Below are positions 7,481 to 15,605 of a stretch of 64,000 nucleotides of DNA, in pieces. The stretch lies in assembly GCF_003991155.1 (NCBI RefSeq), contig NZ_CP031293.1; one strand, written 5' to 3'. The notes beneath the pieces were generated by a model that ran no database searches, was not told the origin of the DNA, and saw nothing but the letters and a program-made list of their open reading frames with translations. The translations under genes were made by a program, and so were the position numbers. The DNA comes from Escherichia coli (GTDB lineage Bacteria; Pseudomonadota; Gammaproteobacteria; Enterobacterales; Enterobacteriaceae). Positions within the stretch are counted from its first letter, which is position 1; every line of letters starts with the position of its first letter.

Positions 7481-7957
7481 ATGAAACTCATCAGTAACGA
7501 TCTGCGCGATGGCGATAAGTTGCCACATCGTCATGTCTTTAACGGCATGGGTTACGATGGCGATAATATTTCACCGCATCTGGCGTGGGATGATGTTCCT
7601 GCAGGAACGAAAAGTTTTGTCGTCACCTGCTACGACCCGGATGCGCCAACCGGCTCCGGCTGGTGGCACTGGGTAGTTGTTAATTTACCCGCTGATACCC
7701 GCGTATTACCGCAAGGGTTTGGCTCTGGTCTGGTAGCAATGCCAGATGGCGTTTTGCAGACGCGTACCGACTTTGGTAAAACCGGGTACGATGGTGCAGC
7801 GCCGCCGAAAGGCGAAACCCATCGCTACATTTTTACCGTTCACGCGCTGGATGTAGAACGTATTGATGTCGATGAAGGTGCCAGCGGCGCGATGGTCGGG
7901 TTTAACGTTCATTTCCACTCTCTGGCAAGCGCCTCGATTACTGCGATGTTTAGTTAA
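7481..7957 (+). CDS. ybhB: PEBP-family (kinase inhibitor-like) protein
   Basis: 158-aa ORF with aggag-like RBS (aaaggagg) upstream; conserved position after bioA. Confidence 0.85.
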   Translation: MKLISNDLRDGDKLPHRHVFNGMGYDGDNISPHLAWDDVPAGTKSFVVTCYDPDAPTGSGWWHWVVVNLPADTRVLPQGFGSGLVAMPDGVLQTRTDFGKTGYDGAAPPKGETHRYIFTVHALDVERIDVDEGASGAMVGFNVHFHSLASASITAMFS

Positions 7958-8108
7958 TCACTCTGCCAGATGGCGCAATACCATCTGGTATCACTTAAAG
8001 GTATTAAAAACAACTTTTTGTCTTTTTACCTTCCCGTTTCGCTAAAGTTAGTATAAAAAAGCAGGCTTCAACGGATTCATTTTTCTATTTCATAGCCCGG
8101 AGCAACCT

Positions 8109-9392
8109 GTGAACACATTTTCAGTTTCCCGTCTGGCGCTGGCATTGGCTTTTGGCGTGACGCTGACCGCCTGTAGCTCAACACCGCCCGATCAACGTCC
8201 TTCTGATCAAACCGCGCCTGGTACCTCTTCTCGCCCGATTCTGTCGGCAAAAGAAGCGCAGAATTTCGATGCTCAACACTATTTTGCATCCCTGACACCA
8301 GGTGCTGCAGCGTGGAATCCTTCCCCGATTACCCTGCCTGCACAACCTGACTTTGTTGTCGGCCCGGCGGGTACTCAAGGTGTAACGCATACCACGATTC
8401 AGGCGGCGGTAGATGCGGCAATTATCAAGCGTACCAACAAGCGCCAGTATATTGCCGTGATGCCTGGTGAGTATCAGGGAACGGTGTATGTCCCTGCCGC
8501 TCCGGGTGGAATTACTCTGTACGGTACAGGTGAAAAACCGATTGATGTGAAAATTGGGCTTTCCCTTGATGGGGGCATGAGCCCAGCCGACTGGCGTCAC
8601 GACGTCAACCCACGCGGCAAATATATGCCGGGTAAACCAGCGTGGTATATGTACGATAGCTGCCAGAGCAAACGCAGCGACAGCATTGGCGTGCTCTGTT
8701 CTGCGGTCTTCTGGTCACAAAACAATGGCCTGCAACTGCAAAACCTGACCATCGAAAACACACTGGGCGATAGCGTAGATGCGGGTAACCATCCGGCGGT
8801 GGCACTGCGTACTGATGGCGACAAAGTGCAGATCAATAACGTCAATATTCTCGGTCGCCAGAATACCTTCTTTGTCACCAACAGCGGTGTGCAAAACCGT
8901 CTGGAAAGCAACCGTCAGCCGCGTACCCTGGTGACTAACAGCTACATTGAAGGGGATGTGGATATCGTTTCTGGTCGCGGCGCAGTGGTGTTCGATAATA
9001 CCGAATTCCGCGTGGTGAACTCACGTACTCAGCAAGAAGCGTATGTGTTTGCACCGGCTACGCTGTCTAACATCTATTACGGTTTCCTCGCCGTAAACAG
9101 CCGTTTCAATGCTTCCGGTGATGGCGTGGCGCAACTGGGTCGCTCGCTGGATGTTGATGCCAATACCAACGGTCAGGTGGTGATCCGTGATAGCGCCATC
9201 AACGAAGGTTTTAACACGGCGAAACCGTGGGCCGATGCGGTGATTTCCAATCGTCCATTCGCAGGTAACACCGGCAGCGTTGACGATAGCGACGAAATAC
9301 AACGCAATCTGAATGACACTAACTACAACCGCATGTGGGAATACAATAACCGCGGCGTGGGTAGTAAAGTGGTTGCAGAGGCGAAGAAGTAA
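8109..9392 (+). CDS. ybhC: Pectinesterase-family outer-membrane lipoprotein
   Basis: 427 aa, GTG start, lipoprotein signal (LTAC lipobox), pectin methylesterase-like fold. Confidence 0.85.
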   Translation: MNTFSVSRLALALAFGVTLTACSSTPPDQRPSDQTAPGTSSRPILSAKEAQNFDAQHYFASLTPGAAAWNPSPITLPAQPDFVVGPAGTQGVTHTTIQAAVDAAIIKRTNKRQYIAVMPGEYQGTVYVPAAPGGITLYGTGEKPIDVKIGLSLDGGMSPADWRHDVNPRGKYMPGKPAWYMYDSCQSKRSDSIGVLCSAVFWSQNNGLQLQNLTIENTLGDSVDAGNHPAVALRTDGDKVQINNVNILGRQNTFFVTNSGVQNRLESNRQPRTLVTNSYIEGDVDIVSGRGAVVFDNTEFRVVNSRTQQEAYVFAPATLSNIYYGFLAVNSRFNASGDGVAQLGRSLDVDANTNGQVVIRDSAINEGFNTAKPWADAVISNRPFAGNTGSVDDSDEIQRNLNDTNYNRMWEYNNRGVGSKVVAEAKK

Positions 9393-9395
9393 AAA

Positions 9396-9427
9396 AAGAA
9401 AACCCGATAGTCTGAACCATCGGGTTA
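9396..9427 (-). terminator. Candidate rho-independent terminator for ybhJ
   Basis: Hairpin cccgat..atcggg with A-run on plus strand (T-run on minus strand) just downstream of ybhJ stop. Confidence 0.45.
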
Positions 9428-9435
9428 ATGAAACT

Positions 9436-9464
9436 GGGCGCTATATTTCATAGCGCCTTTTTTT
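9436..9464 (+). terminator. Rho-independent terminator after ybhC
   Basis: gggcgctatatttcatagcgcc hairpin followed by ttttttt. Confidence 0.6.
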
Positions 9465-11724
9465 ACATCTGACGGTTTTTATTGAAGTTAATCAAACTAC
9501 CCGCCTTGATAATCTCGCGCTCTTCGGCCGTCAGGCTTTCCATGTAAAGCGTAATTTCCGTTACCGGCGCATCTTCATGGATCACATAACCTTTAAACGT
9601 CGTACCCGGATTATCCAGCGCTGCTTTAATGCCAGGGATGTAAATGTAATCACCTACGTCAAAGTTCGGTGCTTCCGCCATTTGCAGCGGTAACATCCCC
9701 CAGTTGATGACGTTAGAACGGTAGCGTTTAGTCGCGTACTCCTCGGCAATATTCGCCAGACCGCCAATCACACGCTGACAGCTCGCCGCCTGCTCACGCG
9801 CAGAACCATCGCCTGGTTTCACCGCATAGACCATACTGCCAATTTCAGTTTGCAGCGGATCAATATGCTCCTGACCAGCAATCTGCTTAATGCGCGCAAA
9901 CACCTCTGTCAGCTCGCTGACATTTCCCGCCAGACGCTGATTTTCCAGCTCAGCAGTCGCTTTACTTCTACCAACATAACCTGGATCGCGGCGTGACAGG
10001 GTAAACTCCGCCAGACCAATCGGATTTGAACGATAAGAAGAGGTTTCACCGGAAGGAATCAGTTCGTCGGTGGTGGTCACTTCGTCGAGAATCTTCGAGC
10101 ACACTTTGAGGACGATATTGTCAGTCAGCGCACCCAATTCCGGCCAGTCTTTAATGTTCGGTCCGTAAATCAGCGGTTGCTGGGTCGCCCCTTTCACAAA
10201 GCCCTGATAAACACGGTTTTTATACGGCGTTACATCGAAGGCGTACTCCGGCACGTTGTCCCAGCAATCGAGTTCGCTGGCAGAGGTTAAATAGCCACCG
10301 TTTGCCGCAGTCGCAGCGATAGAACGAGCGTCCATCAACGCCACCGCTGACATCTGCCCATTGGCTGGCTTAGAGCCTTCGCGATTCGGGAAGTTTCGCG
10401 TGGTGTGGCGAATACTCAAACCGTTGTTGATTGGCGTATCGCCCGCGCCAAAGCATGGGCCGCAGAACGCGGTTCTGATGATTGCGCCTGCGCCAATCAA
10501 ATCTGCTACCACACCTTTTTTGGCGAGATCCATAAACACCGGCTGTGATGACGGGTAAACCGCTAACGAGAAGGTGTCATTGCCACAGGATTGACCGCGC
10601 AGTGCATTCGCCGCCGCGATGACGTTTTCGTAGTTACCGCCAGAACAGCCCGCGATAATCCCCTGCTGCACTTTCAGGCGACCGTTTTCGACTTTATCCA
10701 GCAGCGAGAGTTTGGCTTTACCGTGTGCCACGCGCTCGGACTCAATTTCAATCTCACGCAGAATGTCGGTCAGGTTCTGGTTCAGCGTGTCGATTTCATA
10801 CACGTTGCTCGGGTGAAACGGCAGCGCAATCATTGGTTTGATGGCGCTTAAATCAACGCTGATGCAGCCATCGTAGTACGCCATCGGTTGAGGGTTAAGC
10901 TGGCAGTAATCCTGGCCGCGACCGTGCAGCGCCAGCCAGTTATGGACTTCTTCATCGGTTTGCCAGACAGAACTTAAACAGGTCGTTTCAGTGGTCATCA
11001 CGTCAACGCTGTTGCGGAAATCGGTAGAGAGCGCTGCAACACCGGGACCTACGAACTCCATCACTTTGTTTTTGACGTAACCGTTTTTGAACACGGCACC
11101 GATGATAGCCAGCGCCACATCCTGCGGCCCCACATACGGCGCAGGTTTTCCGGTCAGATGCACCGCAACCACGCCCGGATAGTCGATATCCCAGGTGTCA
11201 TTAAGCAGTTGTTTTACCAACTCGCCGCCGCCCTCGCCAACCGCCATTGTCCCTAACGCACCGTAACGGGTATGGCTGTCTGACCCGAGGATCATTTTGC
11301 CGCCGCCTGCCATCATCTCACGCATATATTGATGGATGACCGCAATGTGCGGAGGCACAAAAATACCGCCATAACGCTGGGCTGCCGATAAACCAAAAAC
11401 ATGATCATCACCGTTAATAGTGCCGCCGACGGCGCAGAGTGAGTTATGGCAGTTGGTCAGCACATACGGCAGCGGGAAACGTTCCATACCGGACGCTTTA
11501 GCGGTCTGTACAATACCAACAAAGGTAATATCGTGAGAGGCTAATGAATCAAACTTAATTTTAAGCTTATCCATATTTCCGGACGTATTATGAGAAGAGA
11601 GAATAGACCAGGCAATAGTGCCTTTTTTGGCTTCTTCTTTTTTAATTTCGCCGGTGAAATGTTCTTCGGCAATTATTTCGTTATTACTGGCGAGAAACAC
11701 GCCTTTTTCAGATAACTTGATCAT
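9463..11724 (-). CDS. ybhJ: Aconitase-family hydratase (substrate unknown)
   Basis: About 753 aa from ATG at 11724 (MIKLSEKG); aconitase-like Fe-S ligand region; ORF track start 11748 is an extension. Confidence 0.85.
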
Positions 11725-11906
11725 CAAATGCTCCAGATATCTGCGCACCGTGAAGTGCGCAGAAAGATAATAAATGGATATACTCTAAATAATTCGAGTT
11801 GCAGGAAGGCGACAAGCGAGTGAATCCCCAGGCGCTTACATAAGTAAGTGACTGGGGTGAGCGAACGCAGACGCAGCACATGCAACTTGAAGTATGACGA
11901 GTATAT

Positions 11907-13340
11907 TTACAGCATGTTCCAGCCGATCAGCATATTCCACCACCACACGCCGAGGGTGATATGCACCAGGAAGGTTAATATCGTCAGTACCGCACCGACC
12001 AACCACCAGGATTTAATATCGTTGTAACCCACGCCAAAGATGACCGGACCTGCCGCGCCGCCATAGTGAGTAACCATGCCGCCATAGGAGTTAGAGAACA
12101 ACAGTGCCAGCGCGGTTAACATTAACGGTGCGCCGGAGACATTCGCCAGCATGGCAAATACCGGTAACATGGCAACGATATAGGCACTACCGGAAGCGAA
12201 GAAATAACGCACGATGATGCTGAGGAAAATAATAACGAAGAAAGCAACGTTACCGTGACCATCAAATGCCAGGTTATTTTTAAAGACTTCAGCTAACCAT
12301 TCGAAGAATTTAACTTTCGATAATAAGGAGCTTAAGCCGATAATACCGCCGTACCAGATTAAGGTATTCCAGCCGCCTTTATTTTTAACCACGTCTTCCC
12401 AGGTAACGATGCCCAGCAGCAGCATAGTTGCCATAACAACGATTGCCACGGTGGATTCATCAACCCCCAGAGACTTACTGAAAATCCAGCCCAGCAGCGC
12501 CAGCACAAAGACACCGAGCAGCATTTTTTCGCGGATTTTCATCGGTCCCAGTTCGGCAAGGCCCGCTTTAGCGATGGTTTTGTTATCCACCTTCTTAATT
12601 TCTGGTGGATACATGGTGTAAATCACCAGCGGGGTGACCAGCAGCATAATGATGCCAGGCAATCCGGCGGCCAGCGCCCATCCACCCCAGCTAATTTGCA
12701 GGTGCAGAATGTCGTTGATCATTTTCAGCGCCAGAATGTTCCCCGCCATTGCGGTAAAGAACATATAGCTGGTGGTTTTGGTGACCATGTAAATGGACAT
12801 CATCAGGTAATGTCCGACACGACGCGGACTTTTTTCCGGTTCTGACCCCAAAGCCACCGCCACGCTGTTGATGATCGGTAACACAATGCCGCCCGCACGC
12901 GCGGTGTTAGACGGTGTTGCCGGAGCCAGTACCAGATCGAGAAATACCGTAACGTAACCCAGACCCAGGGTAGTGCTACCAATTTTACCAATCAGCAAAT
13001 AGGCAATACGTTTACCTAAGCCGGTGGTCACAAATGCGGCGCTTAAGGTAAACGCCGAGAACACCAGCCAGGTGGTACCGGAAGAGTAACCGCTTAATAC
13101 AGCGGTGGTTTTAAATTCCCCACCTGATAAGTTACCCACCACTACCATCGATGCGGCGACGGCAATTAACAGTACGACAGGTTCCGGGAAAGGCTTGATA
13201 ACCAGCCCCACAATGGCCGCCAGGTAAATACCAAAAAGCACCCACGCCAGTTCGCTTAATCCTGCTGGAGCTGGCATAAAGCCAATAATACATGGGATTG
13301 CTAATATCAGAATTAGCTTCCATAACGATTTCTTATTCAT
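11907..13340 (-). CDS. ybhI: DASS-family (divalent anion:Na+ symporter-like) transporter
   Basis: 477 aa highly hydrophobic polytopic protein, CitT/DASS-like. Confidence 0.85.
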   Translation of the reverse strand: MNKKSLWKLILILAIPCIIGFMPAPAGLSELAWVLFGIYLAAIVGLVIKPFPEPVVLLIAVAASMVVVGNLSGGEFKTTAVLSGYSSGTTWLVFSAFTLSAAFVTTGLGKRIAYLLIGKIGSTTLGLGYVTVFLDLVLAPATPSNTARAGGIVLPIINSVAVALGSEPEKSPRRVGHYLMMSIYMVTKTTSYMFFTAMAGNILALKMINDILHLQISWGGWALAAGLPGIIMLLVTPLVIYTMYPPEIKKVDNKTIAKAGLAELGPMKIREKMLLGVFVLALLGWIFSKSLGVDESTVAIVVMATMLLLGIVTWEDVVKNKGGWNTLIWYGGIIGLSSLLSKVKFFEWLAEVFKNNLAFDGHGNVAFFVIIFLSIIVRYFFASGSAYIVAMLPVFAMLANVSGAPLMLTALALLFSNSYGGMVTHYGGAAGPVIFGVGYNDIKSWWLVGAVLTILTFLVHITLGVWWWNMLIGWNML

Positions 13341-13415
13341 TTAATATCCTGTTCTTTCTGTATGACTCATACAGAATTCCTTTATTGATTGTCATTATCA
13401 CGACAACAAAATTTT

Positions 13416-14468
13416 TCAGGGAAGATAAACTTCACCGGAAAATATTTTTCTGGTCGTCCGAATAACAGATGCGCGTAACGTCGTGGCATCCTGACCTTCA
13501 TTACTTAAATGAACGTCGAGCGCACCACTGGGGTGTTCAATATTGATATTGCCGTATCCTACAGAAGGGACGATTTGTCGGGTGACGGTGCCTTCCAATG
13601 CACAACTACTGGAAATAGCAATAGCACCGGTTATCGCCAAAGCGCGATGGCAAGAATGCGGCATAAAATAACGCACATTAATTGCCCCGCCTTTCTGCGC
13701 TGGAGAAATAAGTACAGGTTTAGGGATAACCATATTACTGACATCGCCTAAGCCCATTGCTTTACCCGCTTGTAGACGGATAGATTCAATGCGGGCTAAT
13801 AATGCTTTGTCGGCATCCAGCTCTGCCGGTAATTCATAGCCTGTTTTTCCCAGATATTCAGCAGGAATAATGACAATTGGCATCGCCATATCGATACAGG
13901 TCACCGGGACATCGTCAAAATAATCAATCTGATTATCTGTCGGGAAGACTTTTCCGGTTTTCGTTCCGGCGGCATTCAGGAAAGTGAGCGCAACCGGTGC
14001 GGCAGTACCCGGTACGCCGTCAATTCTGGCGCTACCCTCGTACTCGACAACACCATTTGGCGTTTGCACATCAGCTTCGATGAACGTACCCGTATTGACG
14101 TTGCGGATACGTACGCGGGTAACTGGCGAAGTCGCTGCAATCAAACCATTTTCAATGGCGAATGCCCCAACGCCAGACAGCATATTGCCGCAGTTAGGCG
14201 TGGTATCGACACGTTGCTCATGGACGATAACTTGAGCAAACAGATAATCGACATCTGCATGCGGATCGCTGGAGCGGCTAATAATGGCGACTTTACTGGT
14301 CAGCGGATTACCGCCGCCAATACCGTCAATTTCCAGATCGTTACCGGAACCCATAATTGCCATCAATATTTTATCGCGCTGCGTTTGATCTTCGGGTAGA
14401 TGTTCCGCTAACAGGAACGCGCCCCTCGAGGTTCCACCTCGCATCATCACGCAGGGTATTTTTTTCAT
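13416..14468 (-). CDS. ybhH: PrpF/AcnD-accessory-like isomerase family protein
   Basis: 350-aa translation; PrpF-like (diaminopimelate epimerase fold) family by sequence recall. Confidence 0.8.
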   Translation of the reverse strand: MKKIPCVMMRGGTSRGAFLLAEHLPEDQTQRDKILMAIMGSGNDLEIDGIGGGNPLTSKVAIISRSSDPHADVDYLFAQVIVHEQRVDTTPNCGNMLSGVGAFAIENGLIAATSPVTRVRIRNVNTGTFIEADVQTPNGVVEYEGSARIDGVPGTAAPVALTFLNAAGTKTGKVFPTDNQIDYFDDVPVTCIDMAMPIVIIPAEYLGKTGYELPAELDADKALLARIESIRLQAGKAMGLGDVSNMVIPKPVLISPAQKGGAINVRYFMPHSCHRALAITGAIAISSSCALEGTVTRQIVPSVGYGNINIEHPSGALDVHLSNEGQDATTLRASVIRTTRKIFSGEVYLP

Positions 14469-14651
14469 AATAATGCCCTCAATTTAAAAACATAACTTAT
14501 TGCGATATGGTTACATTAAGGGCAAAGCATCTCTAATGACTTTAGCTCAACGATTAATAACATTTTTTCATTAATTTAAGTTGGTTAAATGCAGTTAAAA
14601 TTTTTAACGGTCAGCCACCCAAAATCGACGCTTCCATTTTCCGGAGTAATA

Positions 14652-15605
14652 ATGAAGCATGAATTATCAAGTATGAAGGCATTTGTCATACTGGCAGAGT
14701 CCAGTTCATTTAACAATGCTGCTAAATTACTCAATATTACGCAACCTGCATTAACGCGAAGAATAAAAAAGATGGAGGAAGATTTACATATCCAACTATT
14801 TGAGCGTACAACTCGCAAGGTTACGTTAACAAAAGCAGGAAAAAGATTGCTCCCGGAGGCGCGGGAATTAATAAAGAAATTCGATGAAACGATTTTTAAT
14901 ATTCGTGATATGAATGCTTATCATCGTGGTATGGTGACATTAGCGTGTATTCCGACCGCAGTATTTTATTTTTTACCGCTGGCAATCGGTAAATTTAATG
15001 AGCTGTATCCCAATATTAAAGTGCGGATTCTGGAACAAGGCACGAATAATTGCATGGAATCGGTGCTGTGTAACGAATCAGACTTTGGCATAAACATGAA
15101 CAACGTCACAAATTCATCCATCGATTTTACCCCACTGGTCAACGAGCCGTTCGTGCTGGCCTGTCGGCGTGACCATCCATTGGCCAAAAAGCAGCTTGTA
15201 GAATGGCAGGAGTTAGTGGGTTACAAAATGATTGGCGTACGCTCCTCCAGCGGCAACCGACTGTTGATAGAACAACAGCTAGCCGACAAGCCCTGGAAGC
15301 TGGACTGGTTTTACGAAGTGCGTCATCTTTCGACGTCATTAGGACTGGTGGAGGCAGGACTGGGGATTTCGGCGCTTCCAGGCCTGGCAATGCCCCATGC
15401 GCCCTATTCTTCGATTATTGGTATCCCACTGGTGGAACCCGTTATACGTCGGACATTGGGGATTATTCGCCGCAAAGATGCCGTGCTTTCTCCGGCAGCT
15501 GAACGCTTTTTTGCCTTGCTGATTAATTTGTGGACTGACGATAAAGACAATTTGTGGACCAATATCGTCGAACGCCAGAGACATGCGTTACAGGAGATAG
15601 GTTAA
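14652..15605 (+). CDS. ybhD: LysR-family transcriptional regulator
   Basis: N-terminal HTH (AAKLLNITQPALTRRIKKMEEDL); start set at ATG 14652 (MKHELSS); divergent from ybhH. Confidence 0.8.
   Translation: MKHELSSMKAFVILAESSSFNNAAKLLNITQPALTRRIKKMEEDLHIQLFERTTRKVTLTKAGKRLLPEARELIKKFDETIFNIRDMNAYHRGMVTLACIPTAVFYFLPLAIGKFNELYPNIKVRILEQGTNNCMESVLCNESDFGINMNNVTNSSIDFTPLVNEPFVLACRRDHPLAKKQLVEWQELVGYKMIGVRSSSGNRLLIEQQLADKPWKLDWFYEVRHLSTSLGLVEAGLGISALPGLAMPHAPYSSIIGIPLVEPVIRRTLGIIRRKDAVLSPAAERFFALLINLWTDDKDNLWTNIVERQRHALQEIG

Follow-up and report, generated by a model that had tools for sequence, protein, structure and literature searches.

The closest described counterpart of the genes analysed here is the Tar system of Bacillus velezensis FZB42, in which the LysR-type regulator TarR is paired with tarA, encoding a PrpF-family aconitate isomerase, and tarB, encoding an importer, and which serves growth on trans-aconitate (PMC11495376). 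In this work, we analyse the ybhD/ybhH-ybhI-ybhJ gene cluster in a window of 64,000 nucleotides of the Escherichia coli chromosome (RefSeq assembly GCF_003991155.1, contig NZ_CP031293.1; positions refer to this window unless a contig is named). We propose that the cluster could be a normally repressed module for the use of trans-aconitate, a proposal that we rate as an even call, and we consider it likely that its substrate is an aconitate-type tricarboxylate on which YbhJ acts as an aconitase. Like the Tar system, the cluster comprises a divergent LysR gene and an operon that opens with a PrpF-superfamily isomerase gene followed by a carboxylate importer gene, and the clade of YbhH is about 38–40% identical to TarA, as judged from the identities that the Tar paper gives for Pseudomonas enzymes matched below by their termini. 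In contrast to the Tar system, YbhD represses ybhH whereas TarR is described as an activator that depends on trans-aconitate, the candidate operator reads ATTAAT-N11-ATTAAT in place of TTATAA repeats, the carrier belongs to the DASS rather than the MFS family, and a dedicated aconitase, YbhJ, is added. The E. coli system would be a variant of Tar-type trans-aconitate assimilation, marked by the last two differences.

A second parallel is found in Acidaminococcus fermentans. Its genome report, which draws on Härtel and Buckel (1996), describes trans-aconitate as an energy source of this organism, fermented via citrate, oxaloacetate and pyruvate, and names as candidate genes a 'MatC carrier / aconitate hydratase domain protein' pair, Acfer_0630 and Acfer_0631 (PMC3035267). 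In the A. fermentans sequence examined here (contig L073), a PrpF gene (7547–8689), a MatC/CitMHS carrier gene (8708–9979), and a gene for a YbhJ-type aconitase (9992–12295) form one operon with gaps of only 19 and 13 nt. This operon probably corresponds to Acfer_0630 and Acfer_0631. As in E. coli, the three functions of isomerase, carboxylate carrier and aconitase are encoded together, the YbhJ-type aconitase being 67% identical to YbhJ, and the physiological pathway of A. fermentans runs via citrate and citrate lyase. Unlike in E. coli, the carrier is of the unrelated MatC/CitMHS type, the isomerase is 41% identical to YbhH, and no adjacent LysR gene was found at the operon; the assignment of the A. 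fermentans genes to the trans-aconitate pathway is itself a genome-based suggestion.

Two further systems share enzyme families with the cluster. The AcnD-PrpF pair of the 2-methylcitrate cycle in Shewanella oneidensis (PMC5690661) likewise joins an aconitase-family dehydratase to an isomerase of the PrpF superfamily, which re-sets the geometry of the double bond in a tricarboxylate. However, YbhJ scores 64 bits on the AcnD model (cut-off 1420) and YbhH scores 187 on the PrpF model (cut-off 440.55), the E. coli module has no prpB, prpC or prpE neighbours, and true PrpF proteins are poor aconitate isomerases. The (4E)-oxalomesaconate delta-isomerases LigU and GalD of protocatechuate and gallate degradation (PDB 6P3H, 6P3J and 6P3K) share with YbhH the fold, the Lys/Cys pair, 45–46% identity and the same NCBIfam model. 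In contrast, YbhH falls in a separate clade, no member of which stands beside ring-cleavage, hydratase or aldolase genes in the loci examined.

The E. coli carriers CitT (citrate/succinate) and TtdT (tartrate/succinate) are DASS antiporters encoded together with enzymes that convert the imported acid to oxaloacetate-derived succinate. The ybh module similarly pairs a DASS-family carrier with enzymes, and its carrier, YbhI, lies in the exchanger branch of the family.

RESULTS

YbhJ retains the cluster ligands and most active-site residues of aconitase

The gene ybhJ (9463–11724, minus strand) encodes a 753-residue predicted [4Fe-4S] hydro-lyase of the aconitase family (Pfam Aconitase, E = 5e-88), in which PF00330 covers residues 41–470 with 296.5 bits and the PF00694 swivel domain is matched with 28.4 bits (cut-off 22.8). 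The protein passes the NCBIfam model NF008503 'hydratase', its own clade/equivalog, with 1540 bits, and it scores far below the cut-offs of all named NCBIfam models tested, namely AcnA, AcnB, mitochondrial aconitase, isopropylmalate isomerase (IPMI), homoaconitase/HACN and AcnD.

The cysteines C360 (in AGCSGG), C421 and C424 (both in CGPC) align with the cluster ligands C358, C421 and C424 of pig mitochondrial aconitase, and residues H93, H131, D149, H151, E246, R443, R448, S641 and R643 of YbhJ correspond to H101, H147, D165, H167, E262, R447, R452, S642 and R644 of aconitase. The differences from classical aconitases lie in the second shell (D100C, N258V, N446T, S643A and Q72H). For the C-terminal third, HMMER comparison with PDB entries aligned the GDGSARE region alone, and BLASTP against a classical 650-residue aconitase was used instead; the two proteins align end to end, with insertions in YbhJ at about 311–344 and 596–632. 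In this alignment, the domain-4 TTD...R motif of YbhJ matches that of the classical aconitase, ISTDDITPASAELSSMRSN, and R565 aligns with its domain-4 arginine and is the putative equivalent of R580 of the mitochondrial enzyme. At all 20 key aconitase positions, among them those with the unusual substitutions, 64 of 64 YbhJ orthologues agree. A sequence-only reading of this DNA, which had assigned YbhJ a hydratase role, named the loss of its iron-sulfur ligands as grounds for abandoning the idea; the three cysteines are present and invariant across the 64 orthologues.

YbhJ orthologues adjoin genes of citrate metabolism in strict anaerobes

Scanning one genome for each species with an alignment of YbhJ gave at least 598 relatives, of which the best 80 were studied. 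These 80 comprise proteins of E. albertii, Citrobacter and Edwardsiella, followed by proteins of strict gut anaerobes from three phyla, including Enterocloster, Hungatella, Blautia, Butyrivibrio, many Collinsella, Megasphaera, Acidaminococcus, Ellagibacter, Erysipelotrichaceae, Gemmiger and Epulopiscium. The anaerobe orthologues are 66–73% identical to YbhJ over the full length, and two checked examples score 1325–1378 bits on NF008503. A first impression that the YbhJ family is narrow, with few full-length relatives among 50%-identity representatives, was wrong, since orthologues of 66–73% identity fall in the cluster of the query itself.

To describe the genomic contexts, open reading frames around the orthologues were called, clustered and annotated, giving a set of 41 loci from which Enterobacterales and Collinsella were left out. 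A citrate synthase gene (NF010635, 575–587 bits) lies within 400 bp of the YbhJ gene in 10 of the 41 loci, 8 of which also contain an isocitrate dehydrogenase-type gene; in 3 more, the YbhJ gene adjoins an isocitrate dehydrogenase-type gene alone. Furthermore, 3–4 loci place the YbhJ gene next to the citrate lyase genes citD-citE-citF, together with citG and citC and often with a divergent LysR gene. The second-shell substitutions of YbhJ are identical in the orthologues encoded within the citrate synthase-isocitrate dehydrogenase operons. Because orthologues adjoin citrate synthase, isocitrate dehydrogenase or citrate lyase genes, the simplest reading is that the YbhJ family would be a genuine aconitase of the oxidative tricarboxylic acid (TCA) branch and of citrate fermentation in anaerobes. 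Outside Enterobacterales, YbhJ genes are generally not beside PrpF or DASS genes.

Several loci within this family deserve separate mention. Metagenome contig L012 (1199–11202) carries a LysR gene divergent from an Iso_dh - PrpF - YbhJ-like gene series, plus a second YbhJ-like gene and a classical 650-residue aconitase gene. Its PrpF-family isomerase scores between the 4-oxalomesaconate tautomerase and PrpF models, and the cluster suggests a more elaborate tricarboxylate pathway. Enterocloster lavalensis has two YbhJ paralogues (loci L019 and L079); one adjoins two LysR genes and an isocitrate dehydrogenase-type gene, and the other follows two tandem NMT1_3 binding-protein/DctM-type transporter pairs, suggesting an uptake-linked copy. 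Two YbhJ-like proteins from metagenome-assembled genomes, P0268 (L013, 9001–11115) and P0274 (L014, 1175–3436), have lost the CGPC cysteines and the DSH motif. In each case, a Macro-domain gene and an FGGY kinase gene come next, and the two proteins probably play a different role, as pseudo-enzymes. Little about function could be read from the contexts of P0241, P0246, P0268 and P0274. Among enterobacterial orthologues, the E. tarda protein is 86% identical to E. coli YbhJ compared with 76% for that of Klebsiella, hinting at horizontal transfer. The model NF008503 'hydratase', which covers genes beside citrate synthase and isocitrate dehydrogenase genes or citrate lyase genes in many gut Firmicutes and Negativicutes, would probably be more aptly named aconitate hydratase.

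YbhH belongs to a clade that probably includes active aconitate isomerases

The gene ybhH (13416–14468, minus strand) encodes a 350-residue isomerase of the PrpF superfamily (Pfam PrpF, E = 8e-168). The description 'PrpF-like isomerase', given by the sequence-only reading, thus stands at the level of the superfamily and does not extend to PrpF proper: assignment to PrpF proper was rejected, since YbhH scores 187.3 bits on TIGR02334 against a cut-off of 440.55 and no prp genes occur in the neighbourhood, and the protein lies instead in the branch of LigU and the aconitate isomerases. YbhH passes NF033377 '4-oxalomesaconate tautomerase' with 515 bits (cut-off 440). However, this model scores LigU (539.7), a Pseudomonas protein (P0208, 527.7), a Dickeya protein (P0206, 528) and YbhH nearly alike, so that the RefSeq name of YbhH, which follows the model, carries no functional discrimination; many proteobacterial aconitate isomerases are probably mis-named in RefSeq.

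YbhH is 45–46% identical to LigU, and its residues K59 and C93 align with K66 and C100 of LigU. Its own clade, with members in Pseudomonas, Dickeya and Klebsiella, is held together by identities of 62–69%, and 48 positions that are invariant within the clade differ from LigU. The nearest relatives outside Enterobacteriaceae and Edwardsiella, at 62–64%, come from Pseudomonas, Dickeya and Azotobacter. The Dickeya dadantii locus reads LysR, divergent from PrpF - MFS - FAA_hydrolase - citC citD citE citF, and the Pseudomonas locus reads LysR, divergent from PrpF - SDF - CitMHS - OprD porin. Genes of gallate or protocatechuate breakdown (galA/B/C- or ligJ/K-type genes; dioxygenase, hydratase or aldolase genes) were not found near the YbhH-type genes of the E. 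coli, Klebsiella, Edwardsiella, Dickeya and Pseudomonas loci. A gallate-pathway role for YbhH was rejected on these grounds and because NF033377 does not discriminate.

Functional data exist for likely members of the clade. Sixteen TarA homologues from environmental isolates that grow on trans-aconitate have been assayed, and four of these, AI-7-1, AI-16-1, AI-32-1 and AI-41-1, all from Pseudomonas, reach 88–101% of the activity of TarA in the forward reaction (PMC11495376). Translation of the cloning primers of that study shows that these four proteins begin with (M)QRIPCV(L) and end with FRRLAG, AQRLAG or LRRLAG. The Pseudomonas orthologues of YbhH (P0208, P0210, P0191 and P0213) read MQRIPCVLMRGG...SQRLAG, with termini as in the active enzymes, a likeness judged from the primer-encoded termini. 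In contrast, weakly active paralogues of the same study start with AHVPQV and end with VPGDSF, the termini of PrpF proper; consistent with this, PrpF of P. putida produced no trans-aconitate in E. coli. Because its Pseudomonas members share the termini of assayed active enzymes, the clade containing YbhH very probably includes proven aconitate isomerases.

A crystal structure of YbhH exists (PDB 6OTV, 'putative isomerase YbhH'), for which no describing paper was found. The YbhH of the window differs from the crystallised protein at H69 (R in 6OTV) and I196 (V in 6OTV), indicating that the structure comes from another strain.

YbhI resembles dicarboxylate exchangers of the DASS family

The gene ybhI (11907–13340, minus strand) encodes a 477-residue anion carrier of the DASS family (Na_sulph_symp, E = 1e-194; TIGR00785 dass, 553.5 bits against a cut-off of 198.6). 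Among proteins of solved structure, it most resembles the exchangers DiT1, DiT2 and LaINDY (E = 1e-83 to 3e-69), and the protein is 78–98% conserved among the enterobacterial modules. From these relationships, we infer that YbhI imports a di- or tricarboxylate substrate, probably working as an exchanger. In one lineage of Edwardsiella tarda, the ybhI orthologue (L004, 8483–9915) is split into open reading frames of 230 and 260 amino acids and is an apparent frameshifted pseudogene; the DASS copy of E. hoshinae (L017) is intact and 84% identical.

YbhD is a repressor of ybhH with a conserved candidate operator

The gene ybhD (14652–15605, plus strand) encodes a 317-residue LysR-type regulator with HTH_1 and LysR_substrate domains. 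A LysR gene is paired divergently with the YbhH-type gene in Pseudomonas, Dickeya, K. aerogenes and E. tarda, and its product is 54%, 60%, 65% and 87% identical to YbhD, respectively. Judged by sequence and gene order, YbhD and YbhH form a conserved pair of regulator and enzyme, and the carboxylate carriers joined to this pair vary.

The A+T-rich control region of 183 bp between the divergent genes ybhH and ybhD (14469–14651) contains conserved blocks in alignments of E. coli, E. albertii, Citrobacter, Edwardsiella and Dickeya. Within it lies an inverted repeat, ATTAAT-N11-ATTAAT (14553–14575), of the LysR-type T-N11-A form, which we regard on sequence and conservation as the candidate YbhD site. 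The box is identical in E. albertii, is present in Dickeya, and carries one mismatch in Citrobacter and in two Edwardsiella species. The longest open reading frame of ybhD starts at an ATG at 14589, 21 codons ahead of the annotated start at 14652; the 21-codon extension would overlap the conserved operator region.

In published ChIP-exo and RNA-seq data, YbhD has a single binding site and ybhH is strongly up-regulated in a ybhD deletion mutant (PMC9068703), which identifies YbhD as a repressor of ybhH. The same study labelled the ybhD regulon 'L-malate utilization related' and observed a growth phenotype of the ybhD deletion in glycerol M9 medium solely with added L-malate (PMC9068703). A 2024 review of LysR regulators lists the ligand of YbhD as unknown.

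The four genes behave as one unit

All four genes are intact in the window, and the segment 9463–15605 is 100% identical to several complete E. coli genomes. The sequence-only reading had placed ybhD divergent from ybhH-ybhI-ybhJ in exactly this segment, whose ends are the outer stop codons, and had assigned the LysR, DASS and aconitase families; the gene arrangement is as it described, and these family assignments are far beyond chance. The module is flanked by bioABFC-ybhB-ybhC on one side and by pgl-ybhA-modCBA on the other. RefSeq names the products 'hydratase' (ybhJ), 'anion permease' (ybhI), '4-oxalomesaconate tautomerase' (ybhH) and 'LysR family' (ybhD). The longest open reading frame of ybhJ (9463–11748) would start at a GTG at 11748 and encode 761 amino acids, 8 codons more than from the ATG at 11724; the latter start (753 residues, MIKL...) is backed by RefSeq and by the orthologue alignment, and a GGAG lies upstream of it.

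Among 5426 complete E. coli genomes, 5315 contain the module over at least 80% of its length, and the same gene order is found in E. albertii, Citrobacter, Edwardsiella and Klebsiella. In Klebsiella and Edwardsiella, the module stands at chromosomal sites other than in E. coli, each different, and since gene order is kept at these different sites, the module behaves as one unit. The K. aerogenes module has an extra CitMHS gene between the DASS and aconitase genes and is some 2 kb away from the citAB / oadGAB-citS / citC locus for citrate fermentation. The G+C content of ybhD and ybhH is only mildly reduced, which speaks clearly neither for nor against horizontal transfer.

Spacers, repeat element and terminator

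In the E. coli window, the spacer between ybhI and ybhJ is filled by a repeated ERIC/IRU-like element (11778–11906, minus strand). The element occurs at a median of 6 places per E. coli genome, and its transcript folds as a long imperfect hairpin (-46.3 kcal/mol, z = -5.1). The ERIC/IRU label reflects the match of its core to the ERIC1R and ERIC2 primers. The spacer measures 72–77 nt in Citrobacter and Edwardsiella, where the element is absent, and is lengthened by the element in Escherichia; in K. aerogenes, a CitMHS transporter gene stands where E. coli has the element.

A terminator scan predicted no terminator in the ybhI-ybhJ spacer and a bidirectional one after ybhJ. The latter (9436–9458, both strands), a palindromic G+C-rich hairpin with T-runs on both sides that the scan called as 9436–9458 on the plus strand and 9457–9437 on the minus strand, likely closes both ybhJ (minus strand) and ybhC (plus strand). 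Because the spacer is only 72–77 nt long in relatives and no terminator is predicted in it, co-transcription of ybhJ with ybhHI is probable. Within the 75 nt that separate ybhH from ybhI lies a perfect palindrome with a 9-bp stem, TTCTGTATGACTCATACAGAA (13356–13376), which the scan scored as terminator-like on the plus strand only.

DISCUSSION

A possible trans-aconitate pathway

In the pathway that we propose, YbhI, as a member of the exchanger clade of DASS carriers, would import trans-aconitate, probably against an internal di- or tricarboxylate such as succinate. YbhH would then use its Lys/Cys catalytic pair to convert trans-aconitate to cis-aconitate by an allylic proton shift, and YbhJ, a [4Fe-4S] enzyme of a type otherwise found in strict gut anaerobes, would hydrate cis-aconitate to citrate or isocitrate. 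The product would feed citrate lyase under anaerobic conditions, or isocitrate dehydrogenase. YbhD would keep the operon off and would be expected to respond to trans- or cis-aconitate. What we infer in this scheme is on which substrate each E. coli protein acts, that YbhI works by exchange, and to which ligand YbhD responds.

The sequence-only reading had suggested uptake with isomerisation or hydration of an aconitate- or methylaconitate-like acid. The contexts of YbhJ and of YbhH/YbhD and the A. fermentans operon support this suggestion, and within it they favour the aconitate part; a methylaconitate-like substrate is less likely. Two in vivo reports offer weak hints: deletion of ybhJ lowers NADPH, as deletion of icd does (PMC4054840), and co-culture with an alga raises ybhJ expression 18-fold (PMC10972114). 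The same reading knew of no substrate assigned to these genes and named an unrelated assigned function as its other ground for abandoning the idea. The literature yielded no such function and no functional assignment beyond that of PMC9068703; no paper was found that links ybhD, ybhH, ybhI or ybhJ to trans-aconitate.

Several observations weigh against the trans-aconitate proposal. The literature yielded no assay of any protein of the E. coli module on aconitates, the isomerase activity of YbhH included, and no report of induction by trans-aconitate. Growth on trans-aconitate is not known for E. coli, and no explanation is at hand for the need of a third E. coli aconitase. In an acnAB mutant, inactivation of ybhJ by Blank et al. 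in 2002 reportedly had no effect on the aconitase activity that was left, a result also expected of a repressed gene. With reference to Blank et al. 2002, YbhJ is described in PMC4054840 as a 'catalytically inactive paralog' of aconitase. The sole reported ybhD phenotype concerns L-malate, and YbhH matches NCBI's tautomerase model and shares 45–46% identity and the catalytic pair with LigU. The link between YbhJ and YbhH is drawn from the enterobacterial modules, A. fermentans and metagenomic contig L012, and in most anaerobes YbhJ orthologues have no PrpF link. Finally, AI-79 from Providencia rettgeri, the single homologue from Enterobacterales among those assayed, has 0.67% and 0.35% of the activity of TarA (PMC11495376), and its C-terminus, GDVYVP, resembles GEVYLP of YbhH. 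The AI-79 primer starts at RGGTSK, so that the assayed construct was without the first ~8 residues, and AI-79 is at most a putative orthologue of YbhH: among metagenome contigs, its reverse primer had no match, and the 36 PrpF-family genes hit by its forward primer were unrelated, with no YbhH-like gene beside a YbhJ gene among them.

Alternative explanations

The same architecture could serve another unsaturated or hydroxy tricarboxylate, an alternative to which we give a minor share of the probability. The candidates, 4-oxalomesaconate or 2-keto-4-carboxy-3-hexenedioate (from gallate/polyphenol breakdown in the gut), methyl- or homo-aconitate, and hydroxycitrate, are improbable even when taken jointly. 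The passing score of YbhH on the 4-oxalomesaconate tautomerase model (515 versus 440 bits) and its identity to the structurally characterised LigU, with both catalytic residues aligned, point in this direction. However, NF033377 scores the Pseudomonas aconitate isomerase-type proteins (527.7) and LigU (539.7) alike, and neither galA/B/C- nor ligJ/K-type genes occur near the YbhH-type genes examined. Similarly, the second-shell changes of YbhJ with its two insertions, and the occurrence of YbhJ-like genes alongside a classical aconitase gene (L012 and L026), suggest a different specificity, but the same substitutions are found in orthologues of citrate synthase-isocitrate dehydrogenase operons, and citrate lyase genes adjoin in Dickeya, Klebsiella and several Firmicutes.

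Two readings that dispense with tricarboxylate chemistry are less probable still. A module for C4/C5-dicarboxylates, namely L-malate and 2-oxoglutarate, with YbhI as an exchanger of malate and 2-oxoglutarate and with intermediates derived from malate as the substrates of YbhH and YbhJ, would follow the regulon label of PMC9068703; we consider it quite unlikely. It would account for the malate-dependent phenotype of the ybhD deletion in glycerol M9 medium and for the nearest solved relatives of YbhI, namely LaINDY, which exchanges dicarboxylates, and the chloroplast carriers that exchange malate for 2-oxoglutarate or for glutamate. However, malate use offers no role for a PrpF-type allylic isomerase or an aconitase-type enzyme, E. 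coli already has fumarases and Dcu carriers for malate, the contexts of the YbhJ and YbhH orthologues point to C6 tricarboxylates, and the malate phenotype could be indirect, for example through leakage of dicarboxylates by a de-repressed exchanger. Equally far down the scale is a cluster that does not work as a pathway, with YbhJ as a non-catalytic or regulatory paralogue (sensing oxidative stress or iron) and its neighbours as remnants of a horizontally acquired island. The inactive label of PMC4054840, the H2O2 sensitivity and low NADPH of the ybhJ deletion mutant, the repression of the module under laboratory conditions, the repeat element inserted between ybhI and ybhJ, the frameshifted DASS gene of one E. 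tarda lineage, and the degenerate YbhJ-like proteins without Cys ligands in some metagenome-assembled genomes (P0268 and P0274) would fit such a cluster. Against it, the catalytic and cluster residues of YbhJ are intact and identical to those of orthologues in TCA-branch operons, the four genes are intact in the window with at least 80% of the module retained in 5315 of the 5426 complete genomes, and the module is conserved across genera with gene order kept at different chromosomal sites.

Origin and significance of the module

Returning to the trans-aconitate module, its parts look like a chimera of a gammaproteobacterial sensor-isomerase pair, a DASS exchanger-type carrier and an anaerobe-type aconitase. 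PMC11495376 cites trans-aconitate as an inhibitor of housekeeping aconitases. We may speculate that a dedicated aconitase is owed to such inhibition, to anaerobic expression, or to channelling to citrate lyase. A bolder and more doubtful hypothesis is that YbhJ represents a distinct, unnamed aconitase class that is the principal TCA-branch/citrate-fermentation aconitase of many strict gut anaerobes (Lachnospiraceae, Hungatella, Megasphaera, Acidaminococcus, possibly Collinsella). Enterobacteria would have captured it horizontally and joined it to the sensor-isomerase pair and a DASS exchanger, giving an anaerobic 'trans-aconitate in, succinate out' fermentation in which YbhJ would be needed because trans-aconitate inhibits AcnA and AcnB.

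The genes and their family memberships have long been known, and the suggestion of the sequence-only reading follows from annotations. What is new is the evidence that YbhJ-type proteins are a working aconitase of many anaerobes, the conservation of YbhD and YbhH as a pair, the Pseudomonas examples of which match aconitate isomerases of measured activity, the finding that an organism known to ferment trans-aconitate combines the three functions as well, and the recognition that the RefSeq product names of ybhJ and ybhH are uninformative or misleading. Since an aconitate isomerase followed by an aconitase is known biochemistry, the advance would be incremental rather than conceptual. If the proposal is true, two annotation problems would be mended, in that NF008503 'hydratase' would better be named aconitase and NF033377 would be seen to capture aconitate isomerases as well, and YbhD would gain a ligand and become a possible biosensor part. 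Trans-aconitate is a plant acid that is abundant in grasses and relevant to ruminant health. The proposal, if true, would show what four long-uncharacterised E. coli genes do, and would provide E. coli with a third true aconitase and with a plant-derived gut nutrient that it could use.

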